A stretch of DNA of 64,000 nt, from NCBI RefSeq assembly GCF_056712565.1, contig NZ_CM160072.1, one strand, 5' to 3'. Numbering within the stretch: position 1 is the stretch's first letter; the number at the start of each line of letters is the position of its first letter. Made by a program: the position numbers. This document shows positions 49,501 through 52,500 of the stretch, in pieces.

Positions 49501-52500
49501 CATTAGCGGGTATACTCATGCCGCATTGTCCTCTTAGTTAAATGGATATAACGAGCCCCTCCTAAGGGCTAATTGCAGGTTCGATTCCTGCAGGGGACAC
49601 CATTTATCAGTTCGCTCCCATCCGTACCAGTCCGCAAAATCCCCTGAATATCAAGCCTTCCGTAGATTCACAGTTCGTCATGGTTCGCTTCAGATCGTTG
49701 ACAGCCGCACTACATGACGGGTAAAAAGTGGATAAAATAATTTTACCCACCGGATTTTTACCCATGCTCACCGTTAAGCAGATTGAAGCAGCAAAGCCGA
49801 AAGAAAAACCATACCGCCTACTCGATGGTAATGGCCTGTACCTTTATGTCCCTGTATCAGGGAAAAAGGTATGGCAGCTTCGCTACAAGATTGACGGTAA
49901 GGAGAAAATCCTGACCGTCGGAAAATATCCACTTATGACTTTGCAGGAGGCAAGAGATAAAGCATGGACCGCGAGGAAAGACATCTCGGTTGGCATCGAT
50001 CCGGTAAAAGCGAAAAAGGCTTCGTCTAACAACAATTCCTTTAGTGCGATTTACAAGGAATGGTACGAGCACAAGAAGCAAGTCTGGTCAGTAGGCTATG
50101 CAACTGAACTTGCAAAAATGTTTGATGACGACATTTTACCTATCATCGGCGGCCTTGAAATTCAGGATATTGAGCCGATGCAACTGCTGGAAGTAATCCG
50201 CAGATTTGAAGATCGCGGTGCAATGGAGCGAGCCAACAAAGCCCGCAGAAGATGCGGCGAGGTTTTCCGTTACGCTATTGTCACTGGTAGGGCTAAATAT
50301 AACCCGGCACCTGACCTTGCTGACGCCATGAAGGGATACCGCAAGAAGAACTTCCCGTTTCTTCCTGCAGACCAGATCCCTGCATTCAACAAAGCACTGG
50401 CAACATTTTCAGGAAGTATCGTATCGCTCATTGCGACCAAAGTTTTACGCTACACAGCCCTAAGAACGAAAGAGCTTCGTTCCATGCTATGGAAGAACGT
50501 CGATTTTGAAAACAGGATTATCACCATCGACGCCAGTGTGATGAAGGGACGCAAAATTCATGTGGTCCCGATGTCAGACCAGGTGGTTGAACTTCTCACT
50601 ACGCTAAGCTCCATCACCAAACCAGTATCAGAGTTTGTTTTTGCCGGGCGCAACGATAAGAAGAAGCCAATCTGCGAGAACGCGGTTCTACTTGTGATCA
50701 AACAAATCGGCTATGAGGGTCTAGAAAGCGGTCACGGATTCAGGCATGAATTCAGCACGATTATGAACGAGCACGAATGGCCTGCTGACGCTATTGAAGT
50801 GCAACTGGCACATGCCAACGGCGGATCTGTGCGCGGTATTTACAACCATGCTCAGTATCTCGATAAGCGCAGAGAAATGATGCAGTGGTGGGCGGATTGG
50901 CTTGATGAGAAGGTAGAGTGATCCGCCTTAACAACTATCGAAGAGCACAAAGCCTTGTGTGTCTCATAGGCTATGAAACAATCATTTTACATGGTTACTT
51001 CACTACTTCCGCACAATATGATATCGTTCACAATCTAAAAACATTAATAATTTATCCATTACCGCGGTTAATGCCCGTCGCTTCCAACGGGCTTTTTTGT
51101 AAATTATATTTTTATTACCTTATATTAATATTGGTAATATGTCTGCATGATGTTTTATATTTATTGCGTGAGCTTCGCATGATAGCTGGAGCATCTCTTG
51201 TCATCACTAATTAGCTCCGCTTTATCCGTTCTTGCCCATATTATATTTCTTTTTATTATTTTTGCTGGATTACCGGCTGCTGCACACATAGATGGCACAT
51301 CTTTAGTTACAATACTCCCATACCCAATGACAGATCCGCTTCCAACAGATACTCCTTTCATTATAGAGACATTTCTCCCTACCCATACGTAACTAGATAT
51401 AATGATATCTTTTGCCCAATTAATCCTTTTTTTGCTATGAATATCAAATATAGGATGCCCATCTGATGCACGCAAAATAACATCTCTTGCTATCATGCAG
51501 TCATGGCCAATTGTAACATTGCACTTATCAGTGACGACTTCAAAACCTGCACCTATTGTCGTTCTTCTACCGATAATAACTTTTGAACCTTTTGTTGCGA
51601 CAATATCACCTTTAATCTTACTGTTTTTATGTATTCTTACGTAATTATTATCACCCCTAAATATTACGGTAAGCCATCGACACTCAACATCATCTTCTAT
51701 AATAAGTTTGTTATTGTTTCCATTGAACTGAACTTTATTCTCTTTGCTATTTACAAGATCTCCACATACAAAAACATTACCTGACCCATTATCATCAACG
51801 GAAAACGAGTCTTGAGTCTTGAGTCTTGAGTCTTGAGTCTTGAGTCTTGAGTCTTGAGTCTTGAGTCTTGAGTCTTGAGTCTTAACATATTAGTATCCTA
51901 CGTTATTTTACCACTAGTTACTTTTCTTGTCATTAAAAAGCATTTAAATTTTTATATTTAATTTCGTTGACGTCAATGTTTTTTGCCAATGTACTTACTT
52001 CTTTATGTGATCAGTTCATATTTTTGACGCCAACGAAACATTTAGTGCTTCCCTTCTATTAAGTCTAACCTAGCTTTTATTCTTTCTATTTCTCTGCGCT
52101 GCCATGCTGCCTCGATATAGAATAAGAGATCAGGTCTGACCCCCCATCTAGATCCTGCTGGCGTTATTTCAACGCGCTCAATGATGTCTTCCATTACCAT
52201 CACTGGATTATCATCCTCATCAACAATGATGCTCCCGTCATTATCAGTCAGCGGCATTTCCCTTTGGCCAGTAATGACGTCATCATATACTGCGGGATAA
52301 TCGTCATAGCAAAGAAAGGCATAGCGGCATGTTGTGCTTTCTTCTTCCATGAGTCCGTGAGAAATAAGAACATCACGAAGTTGCTGCGCGATTACACCAT
52401 GATGTATCCTCGCCCCTTCTTCCCCCTTTATAGCGACAGCGTTCAGCCATTTATAAGCGATATACCTGACGTCACCCCAGGCATCCAGCAATGTTTCGTC

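Follow-up and report, generated by a model that had tools for sequence, protein, structure and literature searches.

The polysialic acid O-acetyltransferase gene neuO in a phase-OFF register of 11 heptanucleotide repeats, carried by a CUS-3 prophage of Escherichia coli

A 64,000-nucleotide stretch of contig NZ_CM160072.1 (RefSeq assembly GCF_056712565.1), hereafter the window, carries on its minus strand a gene (51161..51888) that is best read as neuO, which in prophage CUS-3 encodes the polysialic acid O-acetyltransferase. By this reading the gene is a cargo gene of the P22-like prophage at argW, and its 11 copies of the heptanucleotide AAGACTC place this known contingency locus in the phase-OFF genotype. 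We estimate the probability of the assignment at roughly 0.95, and no sequence feature was found to contradict it. Work from 2005 to 2011 had already described the gene with its repeat, the prophage context and the rule of three that sets the reading frame, and a survey in 2026 covered them again; the locus is thus already known and no new biology is claimed for it. NeuO is an acetyl-CoA-dependent O-acetyltransferase of hexapeptide-repeat fold that modifies the E. coli K1 capsule at its alpha-2,8-polysialic acid, an activity documented in published work for a protein identical to the in-frame product (PMC3046976; PMC13001214).

Direct reading of the minus strand gives the order of elements at the 5' end of the gene. 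The ATG start codon (51886..51888) is followed by the bases TT and then by 11 perfect head-to-tail copies of AAGACTC (51883..51807), so that the repeat begins two bases 3' of the ATG, as reported for neuO (PMC3046976). An AGGA Shine-Dalgarno motif (51899..51896) is positioned 7 nt upstream of the start codon. For the tract (51807..51883), known as the poly-psi variable number tandem repeat (VNTR), Tandem Repeats Finder returned a period of 7, 11.0 copies and 100% matches with no indels, and a regular-expression search gave the same count of 11 units. The preliminary description of this DNA had likewise placed exactly 11 units after an ATG at 51888, and the span that it assigned to the gene is the exact stop-to-start extent of neuO. 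A probe of three AAGACTC units found no match in the window outside this tract and none in 100 dinucleotide-preserving shuffles, and no second array of the kind is present within the 64 kb.

With 11 units, the frame opened by the ATG comprises 45 codons (MLRLKTQDSRLKTQDSRLKTQDSRLKTRFPLMIMGQVMFLYVEIL) and ends at a premature TAA (51751..51753). The left-handed beta-helix (hexapeptide-repeat) acetyltransferase body, delineated by Pfam and by identity to the structure 3JQY, is intact (51161..51806) and terminates at its own TAA (51163..51161), one base out of register with the ATG. In simulated tracts, 6, 9, 12 and 15 units gave products of 230, 237, 244 and 251 amino acids (aa), and all other unit numbers between 6 and 15 gave 21 to 52 aa. 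The frame is regained in these simulations by gain of one unit (to 12) or loss of two (to 9), in agreement with the earlier proposals that the acetyltransferase frame is reached only at multiples of three and that either change would restore a full-length enzyme. The end of translation had been placed after about 37 codons rather than 45, a minor error.

Repair of the frame by a twelfth unit yields a product that matches, at 244 of 244 residues, the protein deposited as 'Polysialic acid O-acetyltransferase' (PDB entry 3JQY, E 5.1e-162); the 12-unit, four-heptad protein is the form that was used for the crystal structure (PMC3046976). Residues His147 and Trp171, which are catalytic, and Arg73 and Lys95, which belong to the acceptor site (PMC3046976), are all present, numbered as in the +12, four-heptad form. 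The second-best match in the structural database was meningococcal OatWY (2WLC, E 3.7e-31), followed by galactoside and maltose O-acetyltransferases. OatWY, from Neisseria meningitidis serogroups W-135 and Y, is likewise a left-handed beta-helix capsule sialate O-acetyltransferase and is described as the closest structural relative (PMC3046976). Its similarity to NeuO is, however, confined to the enzyme body (residues 53 to 236), with no repeat tract mentioned for it in PMC3046976, and it is a meningococcal capsule enzyme acting on heteropolymeric capsules, whereas NeuO is prophage cargo. Pfam recognises Hexapep (PF00132, E 6.1e-6) and an LbH domain (E 1.7e-4) in NeuO. Within NCBIfam, no family scored above its curated cut-off, and the only matches were to generic beta-helix acetyltransferase families, the best being galactoside O-acetyltransferase, with 76.5 bits where 347 would be required; this is probably why RefSeq names the protein merely 'acyltransferase'. 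The preliminary description had already pointed to NeuO, an interpretation confirmed here by the complete identity to 3JQY, by the CUS-3 DNA and by the published rule that only 3n units are in frame.

At the DNA level, positions 49573..53706 of the window are 99.9 to 100% identical to phage CUS-3 (GenBank CP000711), including the start codon, Shine-Dalgarno motif and upstream region of neuO, which are the same in both. Around neuO the sole difference lies in the repeat number, the CP000711 tract being annotated as a 'poly(psi) domain' with 19 copies of the heptanucleotide AAGACTC. The order of attL in tRNA-Arg(CCU), int, neuO on the opposite strand and the endosialidase tailspike gene siaK1 is the CUS-3 order, with 97 to 100% identity. 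The tRNA gene, argW, occupies 49528..49602 on the plus strand, and CUS-3 homology (the attL core) begins inside it at 49573; the CUS-3 integrase, an intS-type tyrosine recombinase, is found at 49764..50921 on the same strand, where CP000711 192..1349 maps. Overall, the copy in the window and CUS-3 NeuO share the whole protein sequence once in frame, the catalytic residues, the placement of the tract after the ATG, the 3n rule and the site between int and the tailspike gene at argW. They differ only in the allele, with 11 units here, 19 in the RS218 reference (also OFF) and 12 in the crystallised form. Between the convergent int and neuO lies a GC-rich hairpin (51073..51092) with a T-run on the plus strand and an A-run on its other side, which may be a bidirectional terminator shared by the two genes.

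The behaviour of such tracts has been established in published work. The length of the AAGACTC tract shifts by strand slippage, mostly one unit at a time (PMC3046976), and full-length, active NeuO is obtained only from repeat numbers divisible by three (PMC3046976; PMC13001214), the non-3n alleles yielding truncated, inactive protein (PMC3046976). Three units encode one added RLKTQDS heptad, and the catalytic efficiency of NeuO climbs linearly as the heptads increase in number (PMC3046976). Transcription of neuO depends on DsdC (PMC9659370). Applied to the gene in the window, slipped-strand mispairing during replication would add or remove AAGACTC units, and each change would shift the frame because seven is not divisible by three. 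Only tracts of 3n units would join the ATG to the enzyme body, every three units lengthening the N-terminus by a heptad. At the present 11 units, ribosomes starting from the ATG at 51888 would halt after 45 codons, so that no enzyme would be made. Since the enzyme body is undamaged, 12 or 9 units should turn neuO back on; the 12-unit variant would correspond to the four-heptad crystallised form and be expected to have modest activity. As far as the sequence can tell, a single slippage step could reverse the phase-OFF genotype, and the strain as it stands is probably for the most part non-acetylating.

It could be supposed that internal initiation, or a shift of the ribosomal frame at the repeat, nonetheless lets the 11-unit allele make active enzyme. 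NeuO lacking heptads is still active (PMC3046976), which makes the N-terminal extension dispensable, and in OFF genomes RefSeq annotates a 111-aa 'acyltransferase' open reading frame (ORF) starting from the ATG at 51496 (WP_011478229.1 in strain MS20673). The enzyme frame, however, has a TAA at 51892 and from there no ATG, GTG or TTG before 51496, and an alternative in-frame start was rejected for that reason. A product begun at 51496 would miss about 105 residues of the beta-helix, Arg73 and Lys95 among them, and the published inactivity of non-3n alleles (PMC3046976) also speaks against residual function. Expression of active enzyme from the OFF allele is therefore hard to credit. Natural alleles follow the same pattern as the simulated ones: those with 27 and 30 units encode 279 and 286 aa, and those with 11, 19 and 47 units encode 45, 49 and 129 aa. 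RefSeq correspondingly has full-length coding sequences of 286 and 279 aa for the alleles of 30 and 27 units, and nothing beyond the 111-aa internal ORF for those of 47 or 11. In the MS20673 annotation, the phase-OFF neuO is in this way hidden by automatic annotation.

Repeat number was compared in 87 complete E. coli genomes whose flanks are otherwise almost the same, and in these the tract ranges from 5 to 53 AAGACTC units with a median of 26. These numbers were derived from hit spans and checked by direct counting in four loci (19, 30, 27 and 47 units); the span-based count also agrees with the published 21 repeats of MS7163 (PMC13001214). Taken modulo 3, the unit numbers fall into all three frames, with 28 genomes at remainder 0, 26 at 1 and 33 at 2, which places 28 in frame and 59 out of frame. 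The in-frame share of about one-third is as expected of a freely drifting switch. Published surveys give a range of 2 to 93 units for natural neuO alleles (PMC3046976) and an out-of-frame share of 65.6% among 64 complete K1 genomes (PMC13001214). A 1-kb query from the neuO region had matches in 177 of 5,426 complete E. coli genomes, a figure that is an upper bound on neuO carriage as some matches cover only the adjacent tailspike end or a fragment of the gene; 156 of them span 80% or more of the query.

Certain limits apply to the phase-OFF neuO reading. The repeat number comes from one assembled consensus sequence. The K1 kps/neu cluster maps elsewhere on the chromosome, outside the window. 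The promoter-like site upstream of neuO (51905..51933, minus strand; ATGACA, 17 nt, TG-TAAAAT) is weak, being a consensus match at 10 of 12 positions for which no promoter is claimed, and such sites in the region as a whole are not in excess of shuffles (7 versus 5.6 ± 2.0).

The first of these points leaves room for 11 to be an artefact of assembly or consensus calling, the true majority allele having 12 or 9 units with neuO ON. VNTR tracts are indeed heterogeneous in cultures, as in MS7163, where 21 units were seen in 93% of cells, 20 in 1.9% and 22 in 5.4% (PMC13001214), and assemblers report one length. The present tract, however, spans merely 77 bp of perfect repeat between unique flanks and is crossed by ordinary reads, and an independent complete genome, that of the cerebrospinal-fluid isolate MS20673, has 11 units as well (L008:6001-7001). 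An OFF count is moreover the expected outcome, because about two in three of the complete genomes carry an out-of-frame tract. An artefact of this kind appears unlikely to us. The earlier description of the gene as translationally OFF holds for the assembled consensus; it does not extend to every cell, as a culture normally holds a minority of ON cells, and we infer that the culture of this strain does so too.

The location of kps/neu beyond the window likewise admits a switch that is intact yet without effect, in a host without a K1 capsule of polysialic acid. The surrounding sequence points the other way: over about 14.7 kb, the prophage and the chromosome next to it show 100.0% identity with K1 strains such as APEC O1, S88, MS7163 and DSM 30083. 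The polysialyltransferase gene neuS is found in 328 of the 5,426 complete E. coli genomes, and 7 of the 10 genomes listed for it are also among the neuO matches listed. CUS-3 and neuO are, besides, tightly tied to K1 strains, above all to those of sequence type 95 (PMC3046976; PMC13001214). A host of this kind is quite unlikely, and the strain is most probably K1.

The prophage itself is damaged. Its siaK1 gene is split by the insertion of a complete IS2 of 1331 bp (53706..55036, plus strand), recognised from the element ends, from IS2 TnpB (713 bits, the cut-off being 597) and from the gap in the CUS-3 alignment, and bordered by a 5-bp target duplication, AGGAG (53701..53705 and 55037..55041). 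The C-terminal fragment of the endosialidase tailspike gene (52042..53705, minus strand) is 99.9% identical to CP000711 2526..4190. The N-terminal fragment (55037..56323, minus strand) shares 96.9% identity with CP000711 4185..5904, and position 5471 of that entry, where siaK1 starts, maps to 56323. Neither fragment had an NCBIfam match, and the junction of siaK1 and IS2 was found in none of the 5,426 complete E. coli genomes. With its tailspike gene so divided, in which respect it differs from CUS-3, this prophage should fail to make infectious K1-specific virions.

Such damage could suggest that neuO, too, is a decaying pseudogene of a degraded prophage and not a working switch. Outside the repeat, however, not one substitution separates neuO from the crystallised active enzyme or from CUS-3, and its sole lesion is the repeat number, which a single slippage event can change. 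Decay of the gene is thus a very improbable account of its OFF state, and phase variation of an intact neuO is preferred. In other lysogens the tailspike gene has suffered different lesions, independent of this one. It carries an insertion of the IS3 family in FY26 (L005:8155-12413) and of ISEc52 in SF-088 (L006:8295-12493), and IS3-associated deletions leave only 200 to 500 bp of it in MS8345 (L007:3589-5059) and MS20673 (L008:3763-6059); it is intact in the RS218 CUS-3 and in DSM 30083 (L004:8176-11088). In all of the compared lysogens with differing tailspike lesions, neuO is retained undamaged and switchable. Decay of CUS-3-like prophages has been noted before (PMC9659370). The variety of tailspike lesions beside an intact neuO could fit recurrent selection or simple prophage decay. 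It is conceivable, though we hold it only tentatively and think it rather doubtful, that losing the endosialidase, or the viability of the phage, is what the host recurrently selects for, while it domesticates neuO as a contingency gene of its own. Were this true, IS insertions in the tailspike gene would reflect selection for that target and not neutral decay.

The design of neuO has parallels in other systems. Simple-sequence contingency loci include the lic1 and lic2 tetranucleotide repeats and the homopolymer tracts in capsule and lipooligosaccharide genes. They share with neuO the logic of a perfect short tandem repeat that lies in the 5' coding region and has a unit length not divisible by three; its slippage shifts the frame and so produces stochastic ON/OFF variation of the cell surface. 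In contrast to the contingency loci of Haemophilus influenzae and Neisseria, neuO has a unit of 7 bases and sits on a mobile prophage, and its in-frame tract also tunes the efficiency of the enzyme. As prophage cargo, neuO resembles the serotype-converting O-antigen acetyltransferase and glucosyltransferase genes of temperate phages, such as oac of Shigella phage Sf6 and gtrABC of Salmonella phage P22, which lie beside int and att of P22-like prophages and modify the polysaccharide recognised by the tailspike, thereby protecting against superinfection. Oac differs from NeuO in being an integral-membrane protein of the acyltransferase-3 type and not a beta-helix enzyme, and the phase variation of P22 gtr is epigenetic (Dam/OxyR) and not based on repeat slippage.

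Further features were seen elsewhere in the window. On the plus strand at 57327..57393, Rfam identifies sar RNA with 83.9 bits; this antisense RNA belongs to the P22-type immI (ant/mnt/arc) region, and its presence fits a P22-like prophage. The segment 56757..63487 has no match to the RS218 CUS-3 but agrees at 100.0% identity with the variant of CUS-3 found in APEC O1, S88 and DSM 30083; its counterparts there are annotated as Arc-family repressors, a ClpP-like protease and a YafO-family toxin, a mosaic cargo downstream of ant. A tandem array at 15285..15658 consists of 4.1 copies of a 91-bp unit with 92% matches, three of which match Rfam naRNA4 (CssrE), an element of the repetitive extragenic palindrome/bacterial interspersed mosaic element (REP/BIME) type from the E. 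coli core chromosome.

O-acetylation by NeuO gives the K1 capsule a different antigenicity; this capsule is the principal virulence factor of the E. coli strains behind neonatal meningitis and many urinary tract infections. The modification also shields the cell from K1-specific phages and neutrophils but makes it more sensitive to serum (PMC13001214, PMC9659370). Recognising that neuO is intact here, and OFF at 11 units, is useful for strain annotation, where automatic pipelines call a 111-aa fragment or nothing at all. The phenotype predicted from the allele is a capsule that would be mostly non-acetylated, with ON variants only one slippage step away.

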